DNA of 64,000 nt from an uncultured Mycoplasmatota bacterium (GTDB lineage: Bacteria; Bacillota_I; Bacilli_A; RF39; UBA660). Both the position numbers and the translations under genes were made by a program. Positions 15,488 through 28,640 of the stretch are shown here, piece by piece; within the stretch, counting starts at the first letter, position 1, and each line of letters starts with the position of its first letter. Location: positions 3,050-67,049 of the forward strand of contig USGP01000005.1 of assembly GCA_900554315.1 (NCBI GenBank), read 5' to 3'. The notes under the pieces are model-generated. The model did no database searches. It saw only the letters and a list, made by a program, of their open reading frames with translations, and was not told the DNA's origin.

Positions 15488-16540
15488 ATGAATTTTTTAA
15501 TTACTTTATTATTATTTATTGTAATATTAGGTAGTATTGTATTTGTTCATGAGTTTGGTCATTTTATGTTGGCTAAACTTACTGGAGTTTATGTTTATGA
15601 ATTTGCTATTGGTATGGGGCCTAAAATATGGAGTAAAAAAGGTAAGGAAACAGAATATACCTTAAGAGCTATTCCTATTGGTGGTTTCTGTATGATGGCA
15701 GGAGAAGATGTTGAAGATGATGATTTAAAGAAAGTTCCTAAATCTAAGCGATTACAATCTAAAAAGCCTTGGCAAAGATTTTTGATTATGTTTTTTGGAG
15801 CTGGAAATAATTTTATATTTGCTATTTTACTTCTTTTCTTAATAGGTCTTATCTGGGGTGGACCTTCTATGGAACCCGTTGTTACTTCTGTTCTTAAAAA
15901 TTCCGCAGCAGCCACTGCAGGAATTGAGAAGGGAGACCGCATATTAGAAATTAATGGACATTCTATTTCTACAACAGATGATATTAGTTTATACTTAGCA
16001 GTAGCTGATCCAGAAGAGGCTAGTGATATTAAAGTTGAAAAAGATAATGATAAAATAAAAACTTATTCTGTTCAACCTAAAAAGAAAAAAGTTGATGGAC
16101 AAACCACTTATCAATATGGTATTGGAATGGAACAAGAAGTAGAAAAAGGACTTTTTGCAGCAATTGAATTTACTGGTAAAAAGACTGTTTCTATTTTCAA
16201 ACAAATGGGAGTTACCATTGCTTACTTATTTACAGGAGGTATTAGTATTTCTCAGTTGAGTGGTCCTGTTGGGATATTCTCTATTGTTGGAGATCAAAGT
16301 TCTGGTGGGGTTATGAATATTATTTATTTAATTGCTTTTTTAAGTATTAATGTTGGTTTTATTAATTTACTTCCATTACCTGCTTTTGATGGAGGACATA
16401 TTTTGTTTATTATCATTGAGAAAATTAAAGGTTCTCCAGTTAAGCCAGAAACAGAGAATATGATTCATACAATAGGTTTATTTTTATTAATGATCTTAAT
16501 GGTTGTGATTACATTTAATGATATCTTAAGATTATTTTAA
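15488..16540 (+). CDS. rseP: RIP (site-2) zinc metalloprotease
   Basis: HEFGH motif, PDZ segment, and NLLPLPAFDGGH motif. Confidence 0.9.
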   Translation: MNFLITLLLFIVILGSIVFVHEFGHFMLAKLTGVYVYEFAIGMGPKIWSKKGKETEYTLRAIPIGGFCMMAGEDVEDDDLKKVPKSKRLQSKKPWQRFLIMFFGAGNNFIFAILLLFLIGLIWGGPSMEPVVTSVLKNSAAATAGIEKGDRILEINGHSISTTDDISLYLAVADPEEASDIKVEKDNDKIKTYSVQPKKKKVDGQTTYQYGIGMEQEVEKGLFAAIEFTGKKTVSIFKQMGVTIAYLFTGGISISQLSGPVGIFSIVGDQSSGGVMNIIYLIAFLSINVGFINLLPLPAFDGGHILFIIIEKIKGSPVKPETENMIHTIGLFLLMILMVVITFNDILRLF

Positions 16541-16548
16541 TTCAGAAG

Positions 16549-16746
16549 GTGATTGTTTTGAATCCAATTATTTTTCTTATCATATTATTGGTTGTATCTT
16601 TTGTAGTATTCTTTATTTGCTTTTCAAGCGAAAAGAAAGTATTGAAAGATAGTCAAAAAGATAAACCTAAATTAGTGGATGATGTTGGTGTTTTATTTGA
16701 AGAACAAGACAATAAAAAAGATGAGGATGATGTAGAAATTATTTAA
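16549..16746 (+). CDS. Small membrane protein, hypothetical
   Basis: One TM helix followed by a K/D/E-rich tail. The start may instead be TTG 16558. Confidence 0.5.
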   Translation: MIVLNPIIFLIILLVVSFVVFFICFSSEKKVLKDSQKDKPKLVDDVGVLFEEQDNKKDEDDVEII

Positions 16747-16767
16747 GTCACATTAGTGACTTTTTTT
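16745..16767 (+). terminator. Rho-independent terminator
   Basis: aagtcac/gtgactt stem followed by a T-run. Confidence 0.8.
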
Positions 16768-16855
16768 AATGTATGAATAGATAAATATTCCTTTTTTATA
16801 CATATCAAATGTTTTTTTATCCTTTGTGTTATAATATAAATAGAGGAGGTATTCC

Positions 16856-19018
16856 ATGGTAGTTGGTGTTTTAGTACAACTTTCTAGTCAAAATGTAGAT
16901 AAGATTTTTGATTATGCTGTTCCAGATGAATTGTCTTCTTCTATTCAAGAAGGAATTCGTGTACTTGTTCCATTTGGAAAGCAGACATTAGAGGGATTTG
17001 TTTTGGAAATAAAAGATTCTAGTGATATAGAATTAAAAGAAATTATTTCTGTTGTTGATCAAGATATCGTTTTAAATGATGAGTTGTTGCTGTTGGGAAA
17101 AGAAATGCAAAAAGATACATTATCTACTTTGATTAGTACTTATCAGGTTATGTTGCCTAAGGCTTTAAAGGCAAAGGCAGGTAGTTTTGTATCTAAAAAG
17201 TATCATATTTTTTATCAATTGTGTGATTCTACTTATGTAGGAACTTCTCTTCCTCAAAGAAAGATTTTAGAACTGTTTTCTAGTCAAGATACTATTCCAA
17301 GAGAAGAGTTATTATCTATTTCTAGTTCGGCTTTGTCTACTTTGGTGGATAAAAATGTTTTAGTTCCTATTAAAAAAGAAGATTATCGTTTAAAGTATGA
17401 AGTTTTAGAAGATCATAAAAAAGTGTTAACTTCTGCTCAACAGAGTGTTGTAGATGCTGTTATACATGATGAAAAACATCTTCCTTTTTTGTTGTTTGGT
17501 GTTACTGGAAGTGGAAAAACAGAAGTTTATATGCATATTATTGAACATGTATTACAACAAGGAAAAACAGCGATTATTTTGGTGCCGGAAATTAGTTTGA
17601 CTCCACAGATGGTGGAGCAATTTACAAATCGATTTGGAAATCAGATTGCTGCACTTCATTCTGCTTTGTCCGAAGGAGAAAAGTATGATGAATGGAGAAG
17701 AATTGCTAGAGGAGAAGCTAATATTGTGATTGGTGCTCGAAGTGCTATTTTTGCTCCTTTAAAAAATATTGGAGTCATTATTATGGATGAAGAACATAGC
17801 GATTCTTATAAGCAAGGAGATAAGAATCCAAGATATCATGCTAGAGATGTGGCTATTTGGAGAGGAAAGTATCATGCTTGTCCGGTGTTACTGGGAAGTG
17901 CTACTCCATCTTTAGAGTCTATGGCTAGAGCTCAAAAAGGAGTATATCAATTATTAACATTGAAAGAGAGAGTTAATGGTAAAAGTCTACCGAGTGTAGA
18001 AATCATTGATATGAATAGGGAATCTAAACAAAGTAGTTCTCATATTACACAAACATTGTTGATGGAGATTTGTCACTGTATAGAAAAAGAAGAACAAGCT
18101 ATCTTATTTTTAAATCGTAGGGGATTTTCTACTTTTGTAACTTGTAAAAACTGTGCTGAGACAATAAAATGTCCAAATTGTGATATTACATTAACATATC
18201 ATAAGAGTAATCGAATGCTTAGATGTCACTATTGTGGTTATGCTACGCCACTTCCTAAAAAGTGTCCTAATTGTGGAGAAGATGCTTTATCTGATTTGGG
18301 AGTTGGAACTGAAAAAATAGAAGAAGAGTTACATCATTTATTGCCTTCTGCTAGGGTATTAAGAATGGATGTAGATACGACTAGTAGAAAAGGGGCTCAT
18401 AAGAAAATGATTGAAGCTTTTCGAAACCATGAATATGATATTTTACTTGGAACTCAGATTGTTGCTAAAGGATTGGATTTTGAAAATGTTACTTTAGTTG
18501 GTGTTATTAATGCTGATACAAGTTTAAATATCCCTGACTTTAGAAGTAGTGAAAATACATTTTCTCTTTTATCTCAGGTTGCTGGTAGAAGTGGAAGAAG
18601 TGCTAAAGCTGGAAAAGTATATATACAAACTTTTAATCCTGATCATTATGCCATTTCTTATGTAAAACATCATGATTATTTAGGCTTTTATAAAGAAGAA
18701 ATGCAAATACGTAGAAAATTAGGTTACCCACCTTTTTATTATTTATGTTATTTAAAAATTAGTGGTAAAGATATGAATTATATTTTTCAAGAAGCAGTTA
18801 AGATAAAAAGATCTTTAGAAAGAAATTTAGTACATACTACTATTCTTGGACCTACTTCTTTAGCAATATTTAAAGTAAATAATATTTTTCGTTATGGGAT
18901 TATTTTAAAATATAAAAAAGAAGAATCTTTGCGTGTCGTTTTATCTAAAATTCAAAATCATTATAAAACCAATACAAAAATTCGTGTAGATATTGACTTT
19001 AATCCTAGTCATTTTTAA
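16856..19018 (+). CDS. priA: Primosomal replication-restart helicase PriA
   Basis: Walker A GVTGSGKTE, DEEH box, and Cys-rich zinc-binding insert CKNC..CPNC..CHYC..CPNC. Confidence 0.93.
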   Translation: MVVGVLVQLSSQNVDKIFDYAVPDELSSSIQEGIRVLVPFGKQTLEGFVLEIKDSSDIELKEIISVVDQDIVLNDELLLLGKEMQKDTLSTLISTYQVMLPKALKAKAGSFVSKKYHIFYQLCDSTYVGTSLPQRKILELFSSQDTIPREELLSISSSALSTLVDKNVLVPIKKEDYRLKYEVLEDHKKVLTSAQQSVVDAVIHDEKHLPFLLFGVTGSGKTEVYMHIIEHVLQQGKTAIILVPEISLTPQMVEQFTNRFGNQIAALHSALSEGEKYDEWRRIARGEANIVIGARSAIFAPLKNIGVIIMDEEHSDSYKQGDKNPRYHARDVAIWRGKYHACPVLLGSATPSLESMARAQKGVYQLLTLKERVNGKSLPSVEIIDMNRESKQSSSHITQTLLMEICHCIEKEEQAILFLNRRGFSTFVTCKNCAETIKCPNCDITLTYHKSNRMLRCHYCGYATPLPKKCPNCGEDALSDLGVGTEKIEEELHHLLPSARVLRMDVDTTSRKGAHKKMIEAFRNHEYDILLGTQIVAKGLDFENVTLVGVINADTSLNIPDFRSSENTFSLLSQVAGRSGRSAKAGKVYIQTFNPDHYAISYVKHHDYLGFYKEEMQIRRKLGYPPFYYLCYLKISGKDMNYIFQEAVKIKRSLERNLVHTTILGPTSLAIFKVNNIFRYGIILKYKKEESLRVVLSKIQNHYKTNTKIRVDIDFNPSHF

Positions 19019-19061
19019 TAAAATATGTTATTCTTATGTTAATGATAGGAGTGATATTCAT

Positions 19062-19295
19062 ATGGCAGAAAATCGTTTTATTCAATCTAATGATATGGAA
19101 TCTAATAATTCTGTAAATAATGTTAATCAAAAAAATAGTCAAGAATATCAAAATTTGATGGAACATAGTAAAAAGAATTATGATAATTATTGGGATAGTA
19201 ATAGTCCTATTGTTCGTATTGTTTTGATTGTTTTATTTCTTATTATTGTGATTGGATCTGCTTATTTCTTTATTACGTGGTTCCGTCAGTCGTAG
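19062..19295 (+). CDS. Small tail-anchored membrane protein, hypothetical
   Basis: N/Q-rich N-terminus with a single C-terminal TM helix. TAGGAGTG RBS. Confidence 0.5.
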   Translation: MAENRFIQSNDMESNNSVNNVNQKNSQEYQNLMEHSKKNYDNYWDSNSPIVRIVLIVLFLIIVIGSAYFFITWFRQS

Positions 19296-19309
19296 GGGTG
19301 GTGATATAG

Positions 19310-20446
19310 ATGTTTTCTTCTATATTTGAACAAAAAGATGTTCAAGAGTTATTAGCGAAGGTTGCTTCCAATCCTATATATAATGATAAAAAGAAGAAAG
19401 ACTCTATTAATTATGAGAAGTTTTCAGGGTTAGAGCAAACTTATTTTTTGCTTTTTGATGCTTTATTTAAATATCAAATTATTATTGGAGATATAGATTT
19501 ACTTCCTGATTACGTTCATCATTTGGATTTGTTGTGGCATAAGATTGATAATTTTCATGATATTGGAAATGGTGTATCTAAAATATTAGTAAAATTTGTT
19601 TCTAAAAAGTTAGGTTATAAAACTAAAGTAGAAGAACATCGAAGAGAAATTTTAGAATATATTTATCATCAATATATTGAAGAAGGGTATTTATTTCATG
19701 GAGTTTCTTCTTGTTATGTAGATAGTATTCGTAGAGAAGGATTTACTCCACAAAAGTATGTGAACTATTATCCTAGATTTAAAGAATTACAAGAGAAATA
19801 TTCTTCCTTTTTAACAGATATTGATTTTTCACATCAGTATGTATCTTTTACTGATAATTTTGTAATGGCTTGTTATTATGCTACATATTCACCTATTTAT
19901 TTTTCTAATTTATTATGTCCGCCTACGAATAAAAAAGCAGATGTTAATAGTTATGCTAAAAGAGATTATATCGGTTGTTTTAAAGGGCTTCAACATATTT
20001 TAAAAGCGAAGGAAATTGATGAAGAAAGTAGTAGAAAAATAGAATTATTATGTAATGATGAATGGAAGTTGTTAAGACAAAATGAAGCTAAGCCTACTAT
20101 TATGATGGTTAAAAGAAGTGTTTTTTCTAAAAATCAGATTCAGGGTATTTATGAAATGATTTGTGATAAGAATACTGATATTGGGGAGTTGGCTGGTCAG
20201 ATTATGGACTATAAATATGATTCGTTGGCTTGGAATGAATATATTCCAGCTAATATGATTGAGTTTGTTACAATTCCTTATTCTGACTTTGTTGTAGAAA
20301 AAGAGACAGAGCATGTTGATGTAGTATTGCCTACTGTTCGACCTGAAGTTACACCTGAAGATGGAAAAGTTTCTTTCTTAGTTTTACTTGGTTCTGTTTT
20401 TATTTTATTAGGTGTTGTTATTAGTATTGTTATGTTGTATCAGTAG
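19310..20446 (+). CDS. Tail-anchored hypothetical protein with PARP-like H-Y-E motif set
   Basis: LFHGVSS..VDSIRREGF, QYVSFTDNFVMACYY and WNEYI blocks. C-terminal TM helix. GGGGTGG RBS. Confidence 0.65.
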   Translation: MFSSIFEQKDVQELLAKVASNPIYNDKKKKDSINYEKFSGLEQTYFLLFDALFKYQIIIGDIDLLPDYVHHLDLLWHKIDNFHDIGNGVSKILVKFVSKKLGYKTKVEEHRREILEYIYHQYIEEGYLFHGVSSCYVDSIRREGFTPQKYVNYYPRFKELQEKYSSFLTDIDFSHQYVSFTDNFVMACYYATYSPIYFSNLLCPPTNKKADVNSYAKRDYIGCFKGLQHILKAKEIDEESSRKIELLCNDEWKLLRQNEAKPTIMMVKRSVFSKNQIQGIYEMICDKNTDIGELAGQIMDYKYDSLAWNEYIPANMIEFVTIPYSDFVVEKETEHVDVVLPTVRPEVTPEDGKVSFLVLLGSVFILLGVVISIVMLYQ

Positions 20447-20457
20447 AGGTGATTATA

Positions 20458-21408
20458 ATGAATGATATTAGAATAGTTTTTATGGGAACTCCTGATTTTA
20501 GTGTTCCAGTTTTAGAAGGATTAATTGAACATTATCAAGTGGTAGGAGTTGTTTCTCAACCAGATCGTAGAGTTGGAAGAAAACAAGAAGTTGTTTTTAC
20601 TCCTGTAAAAGAAGTTGCTGTTAAACATCATATTCCGGTTTTTCAACCAGAAAAGATTCGAAAAGATTATGATGATATTTTAGCATTACATCCAGATATT
20701 ATTATTACTTGTGCTTATGGTCAGATTATTCCTAAAGCTATTTTAGATTATCCTAAATATGGATGTATTAATGTTCATGCTTCTTTACTTCCTAAATTAA
20801 GAGGTGGAGCTCCATTACATCATTGTATTATAGATGGATATGATAAGACTGGTGTTACTATTATGTATATGGATGAAGCTATGGATAGTGGAGATATTAT
20901 TTCTCAAAAGGAGACTCCTATTACTGATCAAGACACTATGGAGAGTATTCATGATAGACTTCGTGTTATGGGAAGAGATTTATTATTAGAAACATTGCCA
21001 TCTATTTTGAATGGTACTGCTACTCGAATGAAACAAAATGAAGACGAAGTTACTTATGCTTACAATATTAAAAGAGAAGAGGAATATTTAGACTTTACTA
21101 AGACAAGTAGAGAATTATTTAATCAAATCCGTGGACTTTCTCCTATTCCTGGTAGTTCTTGTACTATAGGAGATAAAGATTTTAAAGTTTACATGGCAAG
21201 AATAGAAAAGGTAGATACCAGTAAAAAGATACCAGGGGAAGTTTTACATATATATAAAGATGGTATTGGTATCGCGACAAAAGATTATGAAATTGTTCTT
21301 ACGGATATTAAACCATCAGGAAAAAGAAGGATGCTTGCTAGTAGTTACGTTAACGGTATTCATAAAGAAGATTTTATTGGGAAGGTAGCTTATGGATGGA
21401 AAGAATAA
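20458..21408 (+). CDS. fmt: Methionyl-tRNA formyltransferase
   Basis: IVFMGTPDF, NVHASLLPKLRGGAPL and the C-terminal domain. Confidence 0.93.
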   Translation: MNDIRIVFMGTPDFSVPVLEGLIEHYQVVGVVSQPDRRVGRKQEVVFTPVKEVAVKHHIPVFQPEKIRKDYDDILALHPDIIITCAYGQIIPKAILDYPKYGCINVHASLLPKLRGGAPLHHCIIDGYDKTGVTIMYMDEAMDSGDIISQKETPITDQDTMESIHDRLRVMGRDLLLETLPSILNGTATRMKQNEDEVTYAYNIKREEEYLDFTKTSRELFNQIRGLSPIPGSSCTIGDKDFKVYMARIEKVDTSKKIPGEVLHIYKDGIGIATKDYEIVLTDIKPSGKRRMLASSYVNGIHKEDFIGKVAYGWKE

Positions 21409-22105
21409 AGTAGATTCTGAACAAATTATGAATTTTTTAAAAACTCCTAGAGGAAAAGCTGTTCTTTTCTTTGGAATTTATTTGATTTTTTTTCTTATTT
21501 TAGGAGTTGCTGCTCATGCAAATGGTCAGGGAGATGTTATTGGTAGTACAGATTTAAAGTTAGATTCTCCATCTTATAATATTTCATCTATTCAAAAAGG
21601 TAACTTTGAGTTTTCTTATCAATATAATATCGATGGGGTAGTTACTACTTATAGTGGAACAAAAAATGATAATAAATCTTTATTTAGTGATGGTGTAACT
21701 CAATATTTTCAAAACGATGATTTATATATGAGGAATCAAGATGGTGTTTGGGTAAAATGTGATAATCCTTATCCATTATCTGCTTTAGTAGAATATTCTA
21801 CAATTACTAAAATTTTAAATCAAGCTACTTATGTTTCTAAAACAGAATTAGCAACAGGAGAAAAAACTTTAAGTTATCAAGTTACATCTACTACTTTAGT
21901 AAAAATATTAGAAGGATTGGATGTTGATTTAGATGATCCTGTTAATACTATAGAGTTGACATTGAATAAAGGTGGAGAAGTTGTTGGAATTTCTTATGAT
22001 GTCAGTAGTTATGCTAAATATAGGGGACTTGCTATGAATCAATATCAAATTACTTTAACATACTCTAATTTTGGAAAAGTAGAAGAGATTGAAAATCCAG
22101 TTTAA
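21392..22105 (+). CDS. Hypothetical N-terminally anchored extracytoplasmic protein
   Basis: TM helix at residues about 24-42, then a soluble domain of about 190 aa. GGAAGG RBS. Overlaps the fmt stop. Confidence 0.6.
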   Translation: MDGKNKVDSEQIMNFLKTPRGKAVLFFGIYLIFFLILGVAAHANGQGDVIGSTDLKLDSPSYNISSIQKGNFEFSYQYNIDGVVTTYSGTKNDNKSLFSDGVTQYFQNDDLYMRNQDGVWVKCDNPYPLSALVEYSTITKILNQATYVSKTELATGEKTLSYQVTSTTLVKILEGLDVDLDDPVNTIELTLNKGGEVVGISYDVSSYAKYRGLAMNQYQITLTYSNFGKVEEIENPV

Positions 22106-22131
22106 AAGAAGACTTATTTGGTCTTCTTTTT
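22104..22131 (+). terminator. Rho-independent terminator
   Basis: aaagaagac/gtcttcttt stem followed by a T-run. Confidence 0.8.
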
Positions 22132-22186
22132 GTTATAGTGTTTTTTTACAGTAATTGTTGTATAATATAGATATTGGAGTGATTCG

Positions 22187-23206
22187 ATGAATATATATAA
22201 TTTAACTAGAGAAAAACTAGAAGAATATTTTGTTAATCATGGTTCTAAGAAGTTTCATGCAGATCAATTGTTTTCGTGGTTATATGAAAAGAGAATTTCT
22301 TCTGTTTTAGAAATTACAGATATTAAAAAAGAAATGTTAGAACAATTATCTAAAGACTTTTCTTTTTCTAAATTGAGACTTATTACTGTAGAGAAAGATG
22401 TTGATGTTTGCAAATATTTATTTGAACTTGAGGATGGGGAACATATTGAAGCGGTTTTGATGAAGCATGATTATGGAAATAGTGTTTGTGTGTCTAGTCA
22501 AGTTGGTTGTAATATGGGGTGTAAGTTTTGTGAGTCTGGTAGAAGAAAGAAAGTTCGTAATTTAGAGACTTATGAAATGGTTACACAAATCCTTATGATA
22601 GAGGAAGATTTAGGTGAGAGAATTAGTCATGTTGTTGTAATGGGAATTGGGGAACCTTTTGATAATTATGATAATTTACTTGATTTTTTACGAATTATAA
22701 ACCATCCTAAAGGACTTGCTATTGGTGCTCGTCATATTACAGTTTCTACTTGTGGAATTGTACCCAAAATATTAGAATTTAGTGATTTTCCACTTCAGAT
22801 TAATTTAGCAATTAGTCTTCATGCACCTAATGATGAACTTAGAAATAAGATTATGCCTATTAATAAAGCGTATCCTTTAAAAGAGTTGATTTCTGCTTTA
22901 GAAGTGTATTTAAAAAAGACGAATCGTCGTATTACTTTTGAGTATATTATGTTAGCTGGTGTTAATGATAGTGTTGAATGTGCTAAAGAATTAGTGGATT
23001 TAGTAGGTCATCTAAACTGTTATGTTAATTTAATTCCTTATAATGAGACAAATAATTTGGAATTTAAGAGAAGTAATACTGTTCAAATTATGAAGTTTTA
23101 TGATATACTTAAGAAGAATAGGCTTGGTGTCACAATCAGGAGAGAATTTGGTAGCAAAATTAGTGCTGCTTGTGGACAACTTAGAAGTAAGAAGGAGGAG
23201 TTATGA
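22187..23206 (+). CDS. rlmN: 23S rRNA/tRNA A2503 C2-methyltransferase (radical SAM)
   Basis: CNMGCKFC cluster, MGIGEP motif, and C-terminal GSKISAACGQL. Confidence 0.92.
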   Translation: MNIYNLTREKLEEYFVNHGSKKFHADQLFSWLYEKRISSVLEITDIKKEMLEQLSKDFSFSKLRLITVEKDVDVCKYLFELEDGEHIEAVLMKHDYGNSVCVSSQVGCNMGCKFCESGRRKKVRNLETYEMVTQILMIEEDLGERISHVVVMGIGEPFDNYDNLLDFLRIINHPKGLAIGARHITVSTCGIVPKILEFSDFPLQINLAISLHAPNDELRNKIMPINKAYPLKELISALEVYLKKTNRRITFEYIMLAGVNDSVECAKELVDLVGHLNCYVNLIPYNETNNLEFKRSNTVQIMKFYDILKKNRLGVTIRREFGSKISAACGQLRSKKEEL

Positions 23207-23946
23207 AATCTTTTTATTTAACAGATGCTGGAAAAGTTCGTAGTCATAATGAAGATAGCGTAATTATTGTTAAAAATCAAAATGATGACTACTTAATGGC
23301 TATTGCAGATGGAATGGGGGGACATTCTGCTGGAGAAGTTGCTAGTTCTATTGCGATAGGTTATTTAGGAAAGTATTTTAAAGAAACGTTTTTAAATATG
23401 AGCAAAGTAGATGCTGTTAATTGGATTCGAGATGCATTTAGTGAGATTAATACGCTTATTTTTCAACATGAGAAAACACATCCTGAGAGTAAAGGAATGG
23501 GTACTACTTTAGTACTTGCTATTTTGACAAAAGATTATTTATTATTTGGTAATGTAGGAGATTCTAGTGGCTTCGTTATGAAAGATGATAAACTTCATAA
23601 GGTTACCTATGATCATACCTTAGTTAATTTGTTAGTTAGTGCGGGTGAACTTACCAAAGAAGAAGCTAGTGTTCACCCTAAAAAGAATGTACTTATGAAG
23701 GCACTTGGTGCTGCTACTTCTGTAGAAGTTGATATTTTTGATTGTGATATGGATATTACGGAAATTCTTCTTTCTAGTGATGGGCTTACTAATATGTTAG
23801 ATAAAGATCAAATAGAAAAAGTATTACTTAGTGATTTAGATGTAGAAGATAAAGTAATTCGATTAATACAGAAAGCGAATAATCGTGGGGGTACAGATAA
23901 TATTTCGGTTGCTTATTTAGTTCGTGATGAGGAAGGTGACGAATGA
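23203..23946 (+). CDS. prpC: PP2C-family Ser/Thr phosphatase
   Basis: NEDS...ADGMGGH...GMGTT...SDGL...GGTDNIS motifs. Confidence 0.9.
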   Translation: MKSFYLTDAGKVRSHNEDSVIIVKNQNDDYLMAIADGMGGHSAGEVASSIAIGYLGKYFKETFLNMSKVDAVNWIRDAFSEINTLIFQHEKTHPESKGMGTTLVLAILTKDYLLFGNVGDSSGFVMKDDKLHKVTYDHTLVNLLVSAGELTKEEASVHPKKNVLMKALGAATSVEVDIFDCDMDITEILLSSDGLTNMLDKDQIEKVLLSDLDVEDKVIRLIQKANNRGGTDNISVAYLVRDEEGDE

Positions 23947-25742
23947 TGATTACAAAGGGGCAAAAGATAAATGATCGTTACGAGATTATTCGTTCTATTG
24001 GTGAAGGTGGTATGGCCAATGTTTATCTTGGCTATGATACAATACTAGATCGTAATGTTGCTATTAAGATTTTGCGTGGGGATTTGTCTACAGATGAAAA
24101 GTTTGTTAGACGTTTTCAACGTGAGGCGTTGTCGGCTTCTAGTTTGGCTCATCCTAATATTGTTGAGATGTATGATGTAGGGGAAGATAATGGAATTTAT
24201 TATATTGTTATGGAGTATGTTGAAGGTAAAACGTTAAAGCAATTACTTAAGAAACGTGGTAGTTTGACTTTATCTGAAGCTATTGACATTATGTTGCAAC
24301 TTACTGATGGTATGGCTCATGCTCATGATTCTTATATTATTCATAGAGATTTGAAACCTCAAAATATTATGATTAAGGATGATGGACAAATCAAGATAAC
24401 AGATTTTGGTATTGCTATGGCTTTAAATGCTACCCAACTTACACAGACTAATTCTGTAATGGGGTCTGTTCATTATTTACCACCAGAACAAGCTAGTGGA
24501 AAGGGTTCTACCATTAAAAGTGATATTTATTCTATGGGAATTATTTTTTATGAACTACTTACTGGTAGTTTACCATTTAAAGGAGATAATGCTGTAGAGA
24601 TTGCTTTAAAGCACATGAGAGACCCACTTCCTAGTGTTAGAGAGGATAATCCATCTATTCCACAAAGCATTGAAAATATTATTATGAAAGCGACCGCTAA
24701 GAATCCTAAGAATCGATATGATGATGCTAGACAAATGCATGAGGATTTATTAACGGCATTGGATGATGATCGTATTAATGAACCTCCATATAAATATCCA
24801 TATCCTGAACATGAAAATGATAATACTAAGAATTTGAAAAAAATTGAGGATTTGGAGAAAAATGAGGATGATGATGAAGATCCTATTGCTACTAAGATAG
24901 AGGATAATGGGGATAAAAAACGTAAAAAAATTATTATTATTTTAGCTGTTGTTTTTGCTGTTTTAGTTTTAGGTATTATTACTGTTGCCTTTATAATTCC
25001 AGCAGTAACAGCTAATAAAAATGTTGTTGTTCCTGATTGTCAAGGAATGACGGTTAATAAGTGTGAAAGAAAATTACAAGATGCTGGATTAGAAGTTAGA
25101 ACTAAAATTAAAGAAGTTGCTTCTGAAAAAGTGAAGAAAGGTAGAGTTGTAAAAACAGATCCTGCTAAAGGCAGAAGTATTAAAGAAGGTACTATGGTTA
25201 CTATTTATCGTTCTACTGGAGAAGAAACTTTTGAGATTGAAGATTATACCGGACAGAACTTTATTGAAGTTCAAACAATTTTAGAAACTCAATATGGATT
25301 AGATGTTAGTGTTGAAAAACGTGATGTGGATGCTAGTGATAGAGAATATGATGAACAAGAAATTATTGGTCAATCTTTAGCTGCTGGTAGTGAGGTTAAA
25401 GAAGGAGATTCTATTATTTTATATATTCCAAATATTGTGGAAGTCTTCCCTAGTATGGTAGATGAAGGATGGAGTTTAGCTGATGCAGAAGCTTTCTGTG
25501 ATAAATACGGATTAACAATTCAAGTAAAATATCAAGAAACGACTGGTTATGACGAAGGGAAAATTATAGATCAATCTAGAGCTGCAGGAAGTCCTATTGT
25601 TAAAGGACAAACTCTTACTGTAACGATTGCTCAAAAACCAAAAGAACAATCTAAACCATCTACACCTTCTACAGATGATACTGAAGAGGATGAGGAGGGT
25701 TCTTCTACTACAACACCTACTACACCAACAACGACACGATAG
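23943..25742 (+). CDS. prkC: PASTA-domain Ser/Thr kinase
   Basis: Hanks kinase motifs (GEGGMANVY, HRDLKPQN, DFGIA), a TM helix, three PASTA-like repeats and a T/P-rich tail. Confidence 0.92.
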   Translation: MMITKGQKINDRYEIIRSIGEGGMANVYLGYDTILDRNVAIKILRGDLSTDEKFVRRFQREALSASSLAHPNIVEMYDVGEDNGIYYIVMEYVEGKTLKQLLKKRGSLTLSEAIDIMLQLTDGMAHAHDSYIIHRDLKPQNIMIKDDGQIKITDFGIAMALNATQLTQTNSVMGSVHYLPPEQASGKGSTIKSDIYSMGIIFYELLTGSLPFKGDNAVEIALKHMRDPLPSVREDNPSIPQSIENIIMKATAKNPKNRYDDARQMHEDLLTALDDDRINEPPYKYPYPEHENDNTKNLKKIEDLEKNEDDDEDPIATKIEDNGDKKRKKIIIILAVVFAVLVLGIITVAFIIPAVTANKNVVVPDCQGMTVNKCERKLQDAGLEVRTKIKEVASEKVKKGRVVKTDPAKGRSIKEGTMVTIYRSTGEETFEIEDYTGQNFIEVQTILETQYGLDVSVEKRDVDASDREYDEQEIIGQSLAAGSEVKEGDSIILYIPNIVEVFPSMVDEGWSLADAEAFCDKYGLTIQVKYQETTGYDEGKIIDQSRAAGSPIVKGQTLTVTIAQKPKEQSKPSTPSTDDTEEDEEGSSTTTPTTPTTTR

Positions 25743-25751
25743 GGGGATTAT

Positions 25752-26591
25752 ATGAAAGGACAGATTGTAAAAATTCATAGTGATTTACATTATGTACAAG
25801 CAGATAATCAGGTTTATCCTTGTAAATGTAGAGGTGTGTTTCGTAAAGAAAAAATTCTTCCTTTAGTTGGAGACTATGTAGAATTTGATGATAAGAAAAA
25901 AGTGATTGAAAAAATTTTACCAAGGAAAAATGAATTTTATCGTCCTAAGGTTAGTAATATAGATCAAGCTTTTTTAATTACTAGTTTGGTCTCTCCTGAT
26001 TTTTCTTTGAATTTATTAGACAAATTACTTGTTCTTATGGAGTTACATTCTGTTCGTCCTATTATATGTATTACAAAAAAAGATTTGGTTTCTAGTGATT
26101 TTTCAGAAATAAAAGAAATTTTATCTTATTATGAAAGTATTGGATATCAAGTTGTTTATAATACAGATTTGGATATCATTAAAAAATTATTAAAAGATAA
26201 GACAAGTGTTTTTACAGGACAAACTGGTGCTGGTAAAAGTACTTTGTTAAATAAGTTGAATCCTAATTGGAATTTGGAAACTGGAGAGGTATCTATTGCT
26301 TTAGGACGTGGTAGACATACAACTAGAGTAGTTACTTTATATGAATTATTTGGTGGTAAAGTTATGGACACTCCTGGATTTTCAGCATTGGATTTCCATG
26401 GATATTCGAAAGAAGAGATTCGTGATGCTTTTGTAGAGTTCAAAAGATATCCATGTCCATTTAAGGATTGTTTGCATACGAAAGAAAAAGAATGTGAAGT
26501 AAAAAGAGCAGTTTCTTCTAATAATATAATGAAGAGTAGATATCAAAATTATCTTAGTTTTATTGGAGAGGATGATTCTTATGAAAGTTAG
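25752..26591 (+). CDS. rsgA: Ribosome small-subunit biogenesis GTPase
   Basis: Circularly permuted GTPase (TKKD, GQTGAGKSTL) and a C-terminal zinc motif C..C.H....C. Confidence 0.9.
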   Translation: MKGQIVKIHSDLHYVQADNQVYPCKCRGVFRKEKILPLVGDYVEFDDKKKVIEKILPRKNEFYRPKVSNIDQAFLITSLVSPDFSLNLLDKLLVLMELHSVRPIICITKKDLVSSDFSEIKEILSYYESIGYQVVYNTDLDIIKKLLKDKTSVFTGQTGAGKSTLLNKLNPNWNLETGEVSIALGRGRHTTRVVTLYELFGGKVMDTPGFSALDFHGYSKEEIRDAFVEFKRYPCPFKDCLHTKEKECEVKRAVSSNNIMKSRYQNYLSFIGEDDSYES

Positions 26592-27207
26592 TGCTTCTTT
26601 TTTAAGTAGTTCTAATATTCCTGTTGATTTAAAACGATTAAATGAAACTGATGTTGATTATATTCATGTAGATGTTATGGATGGTAAGTTTGTCCCAAAT
26701 AAGACAATGCCATTTAGTGAAATGAAAAATATTTATAAATATACAGATAAACGATTAGATGTTCATTTAATGGTTGAAGATCCAAGTAAGTATATTCCTT
26801 TATATGCTGAATTAAATACTGAGTACATTACATTTCATGTGGAAACTATAGATCATATTGAGGAAAATTTGGAATTAATAAAAAGTTTTGGTATTAAGTG
26901 TGGGTTAGCAATAAAACCTGATACTCCAGTAAAAAGCTTAGTCCCTTATTTACCTCTTTTGGATTTAATTTTAGTTATGAGTGTTGAGCCTGGTCAAGGT
27001 GGACAAGAATTTATTCCTTTGTCAGAAGCTAAAATTATGGAAGCAAGGGCATTAGTAGAATCTTACCATTCTAAGGCTTTGATTAATGTAGATGGCGGAG
27101 TTGATAATAAAACAAAGAAAATGTGTCAAGATTGTGATATATTGACATCTGGAAGTTATATTATAAAAGCAAAGTCTTTTCAAAATCAAATTGATAGTTT
27201 AAGATAA
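26581..27207 (+). CDS. rpe: Ribulose-phosphate 3-epimerase
   Basis: HVDVMDG, DVHLMV, VMSVEPGQGGQ and VDGG motifs. Confidence 0.92.
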   Translation: MKVSASFLSSSNIPVDLKRLNETDVDYIHVDVMDGKFVPNKTMPFSEMKNIYKYTDKRLDVHLMVEDPSKYIPLYAELNTEYITFHVETIDHIEENLELIKSFGIKCGLAIKPDTPVKSLVPYLPLLDLILVMSVEPGQGGQEFIPLSEAKIMEARALVESYHSKALINVDGGVDNKTKKMCQDCDILTSGSYIIKAKSFQNQIDSLR

Positions 27208-27227
27208 GAATAATTGGGGTGATAAAT

Positions 27228-28640
27228 ATGGATGAACAAAAGCCAGTTGTTAATACTGATAAAGATGTTGTTTCGTCAGAAGATGTTTTAGCAGTTATTA
27301 ATGGTAATCAGGAGGTTTTACAACAACAGATGGAGAAGGCTAAGGAGCTTTCTGCACAAGATGCTTCTATGAATTCTTTGTCTATTGATCAACAAAAGAG
27401 ATTGATGGATGAGCAAAAGAAAAAAGCAGAAGAGGAAGCACGCTTGGCTGCTGAAAGACAGAAAGCTGCGGAAGAAGAGGCTTATCAAAAATTATCTCCT
27501 AAAGAGAGGAGAAAGTATGATAAAGAAAAAGCTAAAAGAGCAAAAGAAGAAGCAAAACGTCAAAAGCAATTAGCACGTAAAGCTGGAAAAAATGTTGCGG
27601 TTGTTGCTAGGCCTGAACCAGCTCCGGTATCCACTTTGGCTACGACACCAGTCTCTAATAATATTACGGCAACAGCTGATGTAAGTGCTACTTCTCCTAT
27701 GGCGTCTAATACCAATGCTTCTTCTACTAATGTTGCAGAAACCCCTTTGACATCTATAGGAAATACTAATTCAAGTGTTGCAGTAACACAATCAAATCCT
27801 GTTCAATCTGCTGCACCAGTATCTAACAATTCAACTCCAGTATCAACACCAACAGCTACCTCCGGTTCTGCACAACCAGTGGTATCAGCTCCTAATGCAG
27901 TTTCTTCTACAACATCAGGAACTTCTAATTCTGGAGAAACTACACCAGTTGCTTCTAGTTCTCCAATAACTGCTGCAACTACTACAACTGTAGATAGTTC
28001 TGGTACTACTTCTGAAACTACTCCAGCACCTGATACTACATCTACTGATACCAAAGAAGAAGGTAAAGGTGGAAAAAAGAGAAAGAAGAAAGAAAGTAAT
28101 TTAAAATATTATTTAACTTTTATCTTTTTGGCTTTACTAATATGGATGATTGTTTTTTTACCGGATATTAGTAATTTTGTATCTAATTATTTACAGAAGA
28201 AACAACAAGAAGCTCAACCTGAAATTACTACTGGTAAGTTAGTTTGCGAAATGAATACTAATGATGCTACATTAGATTATAATTATAAAGCTGTTTTTGA
28301 TTTTGAGGATAGCTTAATGAAAAAATTAACTTATACTACGACTGTGAAAGGTGATCCAAGTTTGGATGCCGTTGCTTTGTCGGGAATGGATTCATCTTGT
28401 AATCTATTACAAACACATGTTCTTAATATGAATGGTGTTGAGGTTAATTGTGATTTACAAGAAGGTACTTTTGTTAATGAACAAATCTTAGATTATGAAT
28501 TGATTAATCGTGAGGAGTTAACTACGGCTTATTTAGAAGCTGGTGGTACTTATCCAGATTATCAATATAATCAGTATATTGATGAAATAGAAAAGCAAAT
28601 GAATGCAAGTAATTATACTTGTAAGAAAGAAAGTAGTTGA
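27228..28640 (+). CDS. Bitopic membrane protein: K/E-rich coil, S/T/P/A low-complexity tail, TM helix, four-Cys C-terminal domain
   Basis: No signal peptide. KGGKKRKKKES precedes the single TM helix. Paralog of the next gene. Confidence 0.65.
   Translation: MDEQKPVVNTDKDVVSSEDVLAVINGNQEVLQQQMEKAKELSAQDASMNSLSIDQQKRLMDEQKKKAEEEARLAAERQKAAEEEAYQKLSPKERRKYDKEKAKRAKEEAKRQKQLARKAGKNVAVVARPEPAPVSTLATTPVSNNITATADVSATSPMASNTNASSTNVAETPLTSIGNTNSSVAVTQSNPVQSAAPVSNNSTPVSTPTATSGSAQPVVSAPNAVSSTTSGTSNSGETTPVASSSPITAATTTTVDSSGTTSETTPAPDTTSTDTKEEGKGGKKRKKKESNLKYYLTFIFLALLIWMIVFLPDISNFVSNYLQKKQQEAQPEITTGKLVCEMNTNDATLDYNYKAVFDFEDSLMKKLTYTTTVKGDPSLDAVALSGMDSSCNLLQTHVLNMNGVEVNCDLQEGTFVNEQILDYELINREELTTAYLEAGGTYPDYQYNQYIDEIEKQMNASNYTCKKESS

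Follow-up and report, generated by a model that had tools for sequence, protein, structure and literature searches.

ADP-ribosyltransferases (ARTs) share a core built on a split beta-sheet of six strands, most of which lead into a helix; the NAD+ cleft lies between the two sheets (PMC8120803). Active ARTs that lack a catalytic glutamate have been described, including Tpt1 (H-H-h), PARP10 (H-Y-I) and PARP16 (H-Y-Y) (PMC8120803, PMC7955679). Tpt1, also known as KptA (PF01885), is a divergent member of the superfamily. PARP16 (ARTD15; PDB 4F0D) is a eukaryotic mono-ART of the ER in which a helical extension is followed by the ART domain and a TM tail anchor (PMC10450202). Pseudo-ARTs are also well known, such as PARP13 (Y-Y-V), TASOR and the ART domain of LRRC9, which have degenerate triads and were recognised by remote methods only (PMC7955679).

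Here we describe a 378-aa protein from uncultured gut Bacilli, encoded in the window (the whole stretch of 64,000 nucleotides that was analysed). It is the founder of a new lineage-restricted family and does not have the PARP-type H-Y-E triad. Our preferred reading, to which we give a probability of roughly 40%, is that its core derives from an ART domain and has preserved a ligand site of nucleotide type.

A housekeeping operon with a co-inherited partner gene

The gene and its immediate neighbours are arranged as follows:

16856 to 19018, + strand: priA, with Pfam PriA domains; upstream neighbour, in the same predicted transcription unit
19062 to 19295, + strand: small tail-anchored partner ORF, 77 aa from the ATG at 19062
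19310 to 20446, + strand: main gene, 378 aa, tail-anchored, of an unannotated family
20449 to 21408, + strand: fmt (methionyl-tRNA formyltransferase), with Pfam Formyl_trans_N and Formyl_trans_C; downstream neighbour

The preliminary description of this locus, made from the DNA alone, had the reading frame, the peptide blocks quoted from it and the small ORF ahead of it right, as well as both flanking genes. The start of fmt lies 3-12 nt beyond the stop of the main gene, and an RBS-like AGGAGTGA precedes the partner ORF. The sole terminator-like hairpin on the + strand between 16400 and 27500 is at 16745-16762, upstream of priA. A promoter scan was uninformative: in DNA this rich in AT, the counts equalled those expected from shuffled sequence. 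The order priA, small ORF, main gene, fmt is kept in 38 of the 41 named loci and in metagenome contigs, at identities down to 24%. The surroundings are those of a housekeeping operon (priA-fmt-rlmN-stp-pknB) and not of a toxin, defence or mobile element.

The 77-aa partner has a polar, disordered N-terminus and a TM helix with a conserved G..YY. In the 38 of 41 related loci where it is found directly upstream of the main gene, it has a conserved juxtamembrane motif in common (N.KN..EF..LM..S..K.D.YWD.NNP..RI). It gave no significant family match. A downstream 236-aa protein was considered as a third component and set aside, being more widespread than the main gene (82/301 vs 50/301 genomes).

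The usual gene between priA and fmt in Bacillota is def, which encodes peptide deformylase. The partner and main gene do lie between priA and fmt, as the preliminary description had it; its further statement that the pair replaces def holds only in part. The genome does have a normal def (PF01327, E=1.2e-41), at another site (contig C4:28817-29317). In eight genomes of the same family that lack the main gene, varied genes follow priA, def never does (0/8), and fmt adjoins priA in one, which means that this lineage has no fixed priA-def-fmt background. The main protein was also rejected as a deformylase analogue, given the genuine def and the lack of a PF01327 match. It has genomic position in common with peptide deformylase and no sequence similarity, and it is without conserved Cys/His metal ligands beyond H130.

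A new family with fifteen invariant residues

The family falls into 67 clusters at 90% identity and is covered by 189 representatives at 50%, with no Pfam match in any of them. It is limited to a single GTDB family of gut Bacilli with reduced genomes (Ca. Faecimonas and relatives), and the gene is present in 50 of the 301 genomes of the order. In the closest pairs dN/dS is 0.06-0.09, indicating strong purifying selection. The protein itself matched no family in Pfam, NCBIfam, PHROG or PADLOC, and the same searches with its core, the partner, a paralog and a mini-ORF returned sub-threshold noise only (DUF7743, E=0.034; SspB, E=0.0025 in a small library; phrog_28670). With hmmscan (E up to 5), no ART family recurred among 86 family members; the commonest match was DUF2157, which stems from the TM helix. 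Long multidomain members (574-805 aa) contained no informative fused domain in a Pfam scan.

An AlphaFold model of the full-length protein (pLDDT 85, pTM 0.80) has helices at residues 2-124 and an alpha/beta core at 127-327. The parts of the gene referred to below are:

19310 to 19621, + strand: N-terminal all-helical extension, residues 1-104 (model secondary structure)
19622 to 20314, + strand: alpha/beta core, residues 105-335; putative divergent ART-like domain with helical insertions
19664 to 19750, + strand: beta1-alpha1 block, residues 119-147
19841 to 19894, + strand: beta2-alpha2 block, residues 178-195
20096 to 20116, + strand: beta3 strand, ending in K268 (39/42 orthologs) and R269 (42/42)
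20225 to 20266, + strand: third block of the preliminary description, LAWNEYIPANMIEF, residues 306-319; two short strands
20306 to 20356, + strand: acidic linker, residues 333-349 (pLDDT <50)
20357 to 20440, + strand: C-terminal TM helix, residues 350-377

The assignment as a tail-anchored protein with a cytoplasmic domain was borne out by the model, in which residues 350-377 form a single helix. Only 1-4 residues follow this helix in the protein and its relatives, and there is no signal peptide, because the N-terminus is not hydrophobic. The linker ahead of the helix is modelled as disordered and varies in length and sequence among relatives.

Conservation was assessed in 42 syntenic orthologs, with identity down to 24%, and in a wider set of 86 members that includes divergent paralogous branches. 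Fifteen residues are invariant across the orthologs. Twelve are cytoplasmic (K54, Y119, Y122, G126, Y127, H130, Y150, T181, D182, Y190, P195 and R269) and three are glycines of the TM helix (G352, G361 and G368). K54 lies in the N-terminal extension, where Y24, K27, D50 and K78 are near-invariant. The beta1-alpha1 block holds Y119, Y122, G126, Y127 and H130, alongside position 131 (G, S or A), S133, I140, G144, F145 and P147. His130 is kept in 42/42 orthologs; after H130-G comes F, V or I and, one position on, Ser (33/42). At the His130 position 34 of the 86 wider members, from the divergent paralogous branches, have Y, R, C, F or K. The beta2-alpha2 block follows the pattern V-[S/Y/T]-F-T181-D182-x-F-x-x-A-x-Y-Y190-[AS]-x-x-S-P195, with T181, D182, Y190 and P195 as its invariant positions. 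Between R269 and G352 nothing is invariant in the 42 orthologs, and the protein therefore has no conserved beta5 catalytic residue. Judged from sequence, an invariant set that includes His130, Asp182, Arg269, Lys54 and five tyrosines would be typical of a ligand or active site and not of a decayed pseudoenzyme.

The preliminary description had proposed a canonical PARP-like H-Y-E enzyme with the triad H130 (CAT, 19697-19699), Y177 (TAT, 19838-19840) and E310 (GAA, 20237-20239), the codons being placed correctly. In this one sequence, three blocks do resemble PARP1 LWHGSR, GIYFAD..S..Y and LLYNEYIVY, and H130 is invariant in the orthologs. The first block is conserved; the second is so at T181, D182 and Y190, with Tyr at position 177 in only 5 of 86 members. 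At position 179, the structural equivalent of the PARP beta2 Tyr, Ser (24), Tyr (6), Thr (5) and other residues occur. The likeness of the third block (LAWNEYIP) to PARP1 LLYNEYIV is confined to the sequence from the window. This block is the least conserved in the core, with hydrophobic I312 alone kept, and Glu310 occurs in 7/42 orthologs and 10/86 members and varies within the genus, where congeners at 60-76% identity have K, D, L or Q. The PARP profile (PF00644) matched neither the protein (hmmscan, E up to 1), nor its 86 relatives, nor a six-frame translation of its own genome, and is found in 0/401 genomes of the phylum. Alignment with PARP1 by hhalign was non-significant (P ~0.1), the comparator being a single verified PARP1 ART sequence of low power. 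A canonical H-Y-E enzyme is therefore highly improbable, and that part of the preliminary description falls. Since no beta5 glutamate is conserved, the protein would at best be an 'H-x-h' type, like Tpt1 or the Glu-less mono-ART PARPs.

The hhalign path to PARP1 pairs H130 with H862, 'VSFTD' with 'IYFAD' and Y190 with Y907. The second tyrosine of PARP1 thus has an invariant equivalent in Y190, whereas the Tyr896 equivalent is variable, the Glu988 equivalent is absent, and the inserts and domain context differ.

Resemblance to the NAD+-binding lobe of Tpt1

Neither phmmer nor a profile search against PDB sequences found a match. Foldseek with the full-length model returned long-helix noise only from the PDB and BFVD (PaxB, P450, bestrophin), and trimming to the core (pLDDT 92.5, pTM 0.86) was necessary. 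With the trimmed core, 47 of the top 50 PDB matches were chains of ART entries, all of them sub-threshold: nothing fell below E 0.5, the best E was 0.56 and TM-scores were 0.26-0.43. Four ART clades are represented, namely Rhs TreX/TreTu complexes, PltA with pertussis S1, Tpt1, and tankyrase 1/2, together with only two non-ART proteins. Tankyrase chains make up most of this weak list (26-39% identity over ~40 columns, 17-22% over ~80). The best local superposition was on Tpt1 (8tfi), with an rmsd of 1.7 A over 61 columns and 23% identity. Comparison with ART and PARP folds, which the preliminary description had named as the way to check its proposal, thus gave nothing significant for the whole domain and a weak list that is nearly all ART.

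Tpt1 also gave the best profile-profile match, to its C-terminal NAD+-binding lobe. In hhalign, the ortholog profile was compared with a Tpt1 profile of 123 sequences. The beta1-alpha1 block (GYLFHG..S...I...GF.P) matched the HG[ST] motif of the Tpt1 NAD lobe with P=1.1e-7 (probability 94%), and the whole core matched with P=1.3e-5 (probability 80%), Tpt1 having been picked as comparator only after inspection of the Foldseek list. Six control profiles, reversed or unrelated, gave P>=0.03. The matched pair is 'GYLFHGVSSCYVDSIRREGFTP' (residues 124-149) and 'YLYHGTARRFLKSIQEKGLLP' in Tpt1. From this sequence match, the beta1-alpha1 block appears to be a genuine ART-type 'hhHG..S...I...G[FL]xP' unit.

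The score rests wholly on that one block of ~30 residues, and is unchanged when the other blocks are permuted. In native order the alignment is colinear to the Tpt1 C-terminus, pairing 'YVSFTDN' with 'YVHLSDD' (beta2), 'PTIMMVKR' with 'PILLKIEA' (beta3) and 'IPANMIEF' with 'IPSKYMTI'. Blocks 2-4 are each non-significant alone; the beta3 strand falls on the Tpt1 strand 'KPILLKIEA' with P=0.086, and the path that sets beta2-alpha2 on PARP 'YFAD...S..Y' and Tpt1 'VHLSDD...A' adds no score. Because the colinear score is no higher than that of block 1 alone, colinearity is not independent evidence. The N-terminal 104 residues are not similar to the Tpt1 N-lobe (P=0.5). As a bridge between the two families, a mini-ORF (L021, L033) was tried and rejected as too weak (P=0.015 to the core, P=0.012 to Tpt1).

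Both families are without a catalytic glutamate. PF01885 matches neither the protein nor the 86 members, and by whole domain they do not belong to Tpt1. Unlike Tpt1, the protein has no winged-helix N-lobe and no R-H-R-R catalytic tetrad (PMC8120803), with neither Arg nor His at the positions aligned to the tetrad. Where Tpt1 has the second His of H-H-h (VHLS), the new family has S, Y or T, and a hydrophobic residue stands in for the Thr of HGT. The protein is further set apart from Tpt1 by its TM anchor, by an N-domain that is helical and unrelated, and by helical insertions totalling ~120 residues.

These results also bear on the reading that the protein is not ART-related at all, in which a novel alpha/beta fold with a convergent beta1-alpha1 likeness would serve a function unrelated to NAD+. 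Every whole-domain search was non-significant, the hhalign signal is limited to ~30 residues, and the long Foldseek alignments have an rmsd of 12-13 A, all of which would fit such a fold. The helical insertions amount to more than half of the modelled 'core', and the model has five strands against the six of an ART core. Against it, four independent ART clades and only two non-ART proteins populate the Foldseek list, the Tpt1 motif match is specific relative to controls, and the remaining blocks are colinear, with secondary-structure elements in matching order. The order of elements, beta-alpha-beta-alpha-beta-alpha-beta-beta, fits the ART core (PMC8120803). We regard an unrelated fold as rather unlikely, and ART homology of the whole domain as fairly probable; the looser claim of a remote ART-superfamily-like fold survives.

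A putative ligand site at the inner face of the membrane

In architecture the closest described protein is PARP16. Both have N-terminal helices, an ART-type core and a single C-terminal TM anchor in the same order, with the catalytic side cytoplasmic, and they are of similar size (322 aa vs 378 aa). PARP16 likewise lacks the catalytic Glu, and its motif II 'YLT' compares with 'SFT', 'YFT' or 'YLT' in the new family (PMC10450202, PMC7955679). However, PARP16 is a true member of PF00644, unlike the protein described here. PARP16 is absent from the top 50 Foldseek matches of the core, and it has no small tail-anchored partner gene. The likeness holds as an architectural analogy only, and would most simply be explained as convergent architecture.

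We propose that the protein faces the cytoplasm from its tail anchor and that its central alpha/beta domain derives from the ART superfamily fold and has diverged very far, being closest in sequence to the Tpt1/KptA NAD+-binding lobe. It would keep the His-Gly unit of beta1, the Thr-Asp past beta2 and the Tyr on the next helix, the beta5 Glu not being conserved. The 12 invariant cytoplasmic residues may surround a ligand cleft where strands beta1, beta2 and beta3 have their C-terminal ends, and this cleft may bind NAD+ or a nucleotide related to it at the membrane's inner face; for NAD+ itself we would put this somewhat short of an even chance. Any transfer reaction would be Glu-independent, with assistance from the substrate or, as in Tpt1, from Arg/Lys, and catalysis is in our view rather doubtful. 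The 77-aa partner could associate through the Gly-rich TM helix of the main protein.

A more specific version is a bacterial counterpart of PARP16, a tail-anchored ART-fold enzyme without the Glu and with an unprecedented site made of His, Thr-Asp, Tyr and Lys/Arg, which would transfer ADP-ribose from NAD+ onto a membrane-proximal target in a housekeeping role. The 77-aa subunit would then dock through a glycine-zipper TM helix and control the enzyme. The acceptor might be a phosphorylated lipid or cell-envelope precursor, a protein associated with the membrane or, on the model of Tpt1, the end of a nucleic acid. We consider this version a long shot.

It is also conceivable, though unlikely, that the protein is an ART-derived pseudoenzyme or scaffold that has lost NAD+ use and acts with its small partner as a membrane adaptor, recruiting or organising a cytoplasmic component. 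PARP13, TASOR and LRRC9 provide precedents (PMC7955679), and some paralogous branches have Y for the beta1 His, as in PARP13. No conserved beta5 catalytic residue is present, the position equivalent to the beta2 Tyr/His is variable, and the canonical H-x-[S/T] motif, which in PARPs contacts the NAD+ ribose, is not matched exactly, the family reading H-G-[F/V/I]-S with the His replaced in 34/86 wider members. The gene shows no association with macrodomain erasers, and its own genome encodes none. A membrane complex is suggested by the three invariant glycines of the TM helix and by co-inheritance of the partner. However, 12 polar or aromatic cytoplasmic residues invariant down to 24% identity are more than scaffolds usually keep. 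Known pseudo-ARTs have lost the His, which is kept in 42/42 syntenic orthologs together with a rich invariant polar set, and their taxa and architectures are unrelated.

For mutagenesis, the correction of the triad makes H130, D182, Y190, R269 and K54 the candidates rather than Y177 and E310. Either way, the family merits definition as a DUF: should the ART reading fail, there would still be a confidently folded, strongly constrained domain to which neither the PDB nor Pfam offers a relative. If the ART-like reading is true, the family would be an undescribed branch of the ADP-ribosyltransferase superfamily with a strictly conserved, non-canonical residue set that lacks the catalytic Glu. It would combine a tail-anchored topology so far known from eukaryotic PARP16 with a co-inherited small membrane partner. 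As a counterpart of PARP16 it would be a new catalytic ART clade, with a housekeeping rather than a conflict role for ADP-ribosylation. More broadly, the ART-like reading would mean an endogenous, membrane-associated, NAD+-dependent function in poorly known uncultured Bacilli of the human and animal gut.

Gene X, its neighbours and the position of def

Gene X and a small tail-anchored partner (the small ORF) lie between priA and fmt, with the following features on the forward strand:

16745-16762 (+): terminator-like hairpin, 5' of priA, the sole plus-strand example within 16400-27500
16856-19018 (+): priA (Pfam match)
19062-19295 (+): small ORF, 77 aa, with AGGAGTGA upstream
19310-20446 (+): X, ORF of 378 aa, with the Shine-Dalgarno-like GGTGGTGA upstream of its ATG
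20449-21408 (+): fmt (Pfam match)
21392-22105 (+): protein of ~236-237 aa, 3' of fmt, no family match, TM helix at its N-terminus

The X start follows the small ORF stop by 14 nt, and 2-11 nt separate X from fmt, depending on the fmt start. The listed fmt start is a GTG at 20449; the in-frame ATG at 20458, which is preceded by AGGTGA (20445-20450) and gives the usual MNDIRIVFMGTPDF N-terminus, is more likely from the sequence, leaving an 11-nt gap from the X stop. The genes priA, small ORF, X, fmt, the 236-aa protein gene, rlmN, stp and pknB look like a single tightly packed predicted transcription unit, since the only plus-strand hairpin lies 5' of priA. Between rseP and priA, a 65-aa ORF (16549-16746, +) that has a TM helix at its N-terminus and an acidic tail terminates in this hairpin, and similar ORFs of 52-73 aa occupy the same slot in loci L014 and L016.

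The order priA, small ORF, X, fmt, ~236-aa protein, rlmN, PP2C phosphatase, PASTA kinase, rsgA repeats on metagenome contigs where X is just 29-35% identical, and the same arrangement holds for 38 of the 41 named Bacilli loci, the small ORF being absent from three. Common to the small ORFs is the core N.KN..EF..LM..S..K.D.YWD.NNP..RI, after which comes a TM helix containing G..YY. The ~236-237-aa gene takes the rsmB/sun slot of the Bacillus priA-def-fmt-rsmB-rlmN array; its homologs (226-262 aa) hold the same slot in related loci. It was rejected as an X-specific partner because its family is commoner than X, with members in 82 of the order's 301 sampled genomes.

The X pair had been thought to replace def. 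It does sit between priA and fmt in this sub-clade, but def lies elsewhere in the lineage: a standard PF01327 gene, the sole peptide deformylase gene in the window's own genome, is retained away from fmt on contig C4 (locus L001, 28817-29317). In eight same-family genomes without X, assorted genes lie 3' of priA, with fmt directly adjacent in one and def directly after priA in none. Gene order around priA is labile in this GTDB family, as priA's downstream neighbour differs nearly every time among the eight. Because def is kept on C4 and none of the eight shows priA-def, we read the locus as one where def is elsewhere and a sub-clade has the X pair.

Extent and conservation of the family

X has no match in Pfam, NCBIfam, PHROGs or PADLOC, nor in sequence to any PDB chain. 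Clustering at 90% left 67 relatives, and an exhaustive search with clustering at 50% gave 189 representatives, nearly all of ~380 aa and none carrying a Pfam domain. Gut samples from humans, chickens, rabbits and mice, and from the rumen, supplied the named relatives, as MAGs carrying the label Candidatus Faecimonas, 'uncultured Bacilli' or 'Mycoplasmatota'; the window's organism has a 1.28 Mb genome. All 21 genomes of the genus carry X, which occurs in 50 of 301 sampled genomes of the order, all in one GTDB family (16 of 127 genera), and dN/dS between the closest ortholog pairs is 0.06-0.09. X is a real, constrained gene confined to one lineage.

Several related proteins were also observed. 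A 365-aa protein from a Candidatus Magasanikbacteria MAG (L061:3806-4903, +), with 25% identity over X residues 65-269, unrelated context and no Pfam match, was the sole non-Bacilli relative in the named-genome scan, and could represent horizontal spread of the core domain or bin contamination. Contig C12 of the window's own genome encodes a soluble 581-aa protein paralogous to the X core (L062:4785-6530, -; E=3e-34 to the family profile) with the motifs GYYFHAxNS, TTPD and SPEWF. This paralog lacks a TM helix, is much extended at its C-terminus and has a DUF4116 repeat that scores near the threshold. It neighbours two bitopic membrane proteins and one with a Tim44-like domain, and other genomes of the genus have long paralogs of this sort. 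Two Ca. Faecimonas-like MAGs (L021:3218-3676 and L033:3232-3714, both +) have an extra ORF of 152-160 aa inserted 5' of the small ORF, with 'PKFLFHGSPK' and 'AVFLTSSFIIASAYA' resembling the first two conserved blocks of X. This ORF has no Pfam or PHROG match and aligns weakly in hhalign (P=0.015 to X, 0.012 to Tpt1); it might represent the X fold in a minimal, free-standing form.

The preliminary description saw in X a PARP-like H-Y-E ADP-ribosyltransferase (ART), and its codons are exact: CAT for His130 (19697-19699), TAT for Tyr177 (19838-19840) and GAA for Glu310 (20237-20239). As a conserved triad, it holds for His130 but not for the other two. Of 86 diverse representatives of the family, 52 have His at position 130 (18 have Tyr), 5 have Tyr at position 177 and 10 have Glu at position 310. 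Restriction to 42 syntenic orthologs (the window plus 41 loci, identity down to 24%) alters the outcome for His alone, which is found in 42/42. Position 310 is K in 14, E in 7, D in 5, L in 4 and others in the rest, differing even between congeners at 60-76% identity; the 'NEY' third block was thus a chance resemblance in the window's sequence. Tyr177 was the wrong residue: the conserved Tyr is Y190, thirteen residues on, and position 179, equivalent to the PARP Tyr, is S in 24 orthologs, Y in 6 and T in 5. Invariant in the 42 are K54, Y119, Y122, G126, Y127, H130, Y150, T181, D182, Y190, P195 and R269, and G352, G361 and G368 in the TM helix, with none between 269 and 352.

Proposed relationship to the ADP-ribosyltransferase superfamily

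A full-length AlphaFold2 model (26-sequence alignment; pLDDT 85, pTM 0.80) contains:

residues 2-124: helical N-terminal region
residues 127-132, 178-181, 263-268, 306-308, 317-321: five short strands, interleaved with helices
residues 333-349: disordered linker
residues 350-377: TM helix

Foldseek found nothing for this model in PDB or BFVD. The core alone (residues 105-335), re-predicted with 111 sequences (pLDDT 92.5, pTM 0.86), also had no significant PDB match (best E 0.56). Chains from ART entries nevertheless make up 47 of the top 50 matches, all sub-significant. They include Tpt1 (8tfi; rmsd 1.7 A and 23% identity across 61 columns), tankyrase 1/2 PARP domains by the dozen (26-39% identical across ~40 columns), E. 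coli PltA, pertussis S1, and two Rhs ART-toxin complexes (TreX, TreTu) in which the matched chain may not be the toxin itself; TreX is an ART (PMC11606950). The only others are D-Ala-D-Ala ligase (two entries) and JetABC. Matches within one family are not independent, but four unrelated ART clades fill four of six structural clusters, for which chance would be a very unlikely origin.

Profile comparison by hhalign with Tpt1 (123 sequences) gave P 7.8e-4 (probability 25%) for the 86-member core, 1.3e-5 (80%) for the 42-ortholog core and 1.1e-7 (94%) for the beta1-alpha1 block around H130 alone (block 1, residues 118-149). Six profiles served as controls (Tpt1 in reverse, Fmt and PriA of the same loci in both directions, and the small ORF) and gave P>=0.03. 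When the four conserved blocks were concatenated, all 24 orders scored equally (39.2-39.9), and therefore the Tpt1 score derives wholly from block 1. In native order the alignment runs colinearly to the Tpt1 end with no score gain, pairing YVSFTDN with YVHLSDD, PTIMMVKR with PILLKIEA and IPANMIEF with IPSKYMTI. Alone, block 3 is placed colinearly (P=0.086), and blocks 2 and 4 have no match to Tpt1. Against PARP1 (one ART sequence, identical to PDB chains) the expected path was followed, yet non-significantly (P ~0.1), and the Pfam PARP model had no match in any of 401 genomes of the phylum, the window's own among them. Of the three blocks originally described, block 1 and part of block 2 (beta2-alpha2) exceed chance, but the rest does not.

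The ART core has six strands, mostly each followed by a helix, and its conserved His, in an H-x-[S/T] motif, contacts the proximal ribose (PMC8120803). X fits the beta1-alpha1 unit well, but with H-G-[FVI]-S in place of H-G-[ST], and its Thr-Asp after beta2 and Tyr on the next helix pair with D899 and Y907 of PARP1 in the alignment path. At the third ART position H-Y-E enzymes have Glu, the H-H-h group of Tpt1 and DUF952 has a hydrophobic residue, and Tpt1 catalysis depends on a separate R-H-R-R tetrad (PMC8120803). Unlike H-Y-E ARTs, X has no conserved beta5 residue, and unlike Tpt1 it has neither the tetrad nor the N-lobe. ARTs without the Glu can be active (PARP10, H-Y-I; PARP16, H-Y-Y; Tpt1, H-H-h), and PARP13 (Y-Y-V) is dead (PMC7955679). 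PARP16 has a helical extension, an ART domain and a C-terminal TM tail anchor (PMC10450202), a domain order identical to that of X, which is most simply convergent architecture.

Possible function of X

The invariant His, Asp, Arg, Lys and Tyr residues sit at or beside the C-terminal ends of beta1, beta2 and beta3, and so dense a set there favours a preserved, putative ligand-binding or active site over decay to a pseudoenzyme. The remote ART similarity makes NAD+ the putative ligand; binding of NAD+ or a nucleotide is a tentative prediction, a little short of even odds, and transferase activity is rather unlikely. The distribution of macrodomain 'erasers' does not follow that of X (10 of 43 genomes with X and 41 of 258 without it), and the window's own genome has none, which gives no support for a reversible ADP-ribosylation circuit. 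The preliminary reading is partly supported: X is tail-anchored, paired and remotely ART-like, but not a PARP-like H-Y-E enzyme, and a canonical H-Y-E enzyme is highly improbable. We put descent of the whole core from an ART at about 0.6-0.65. The X family is previously undescribed, and is best assigned to the ART superfamily as a variant that lies inside it or at its margin.
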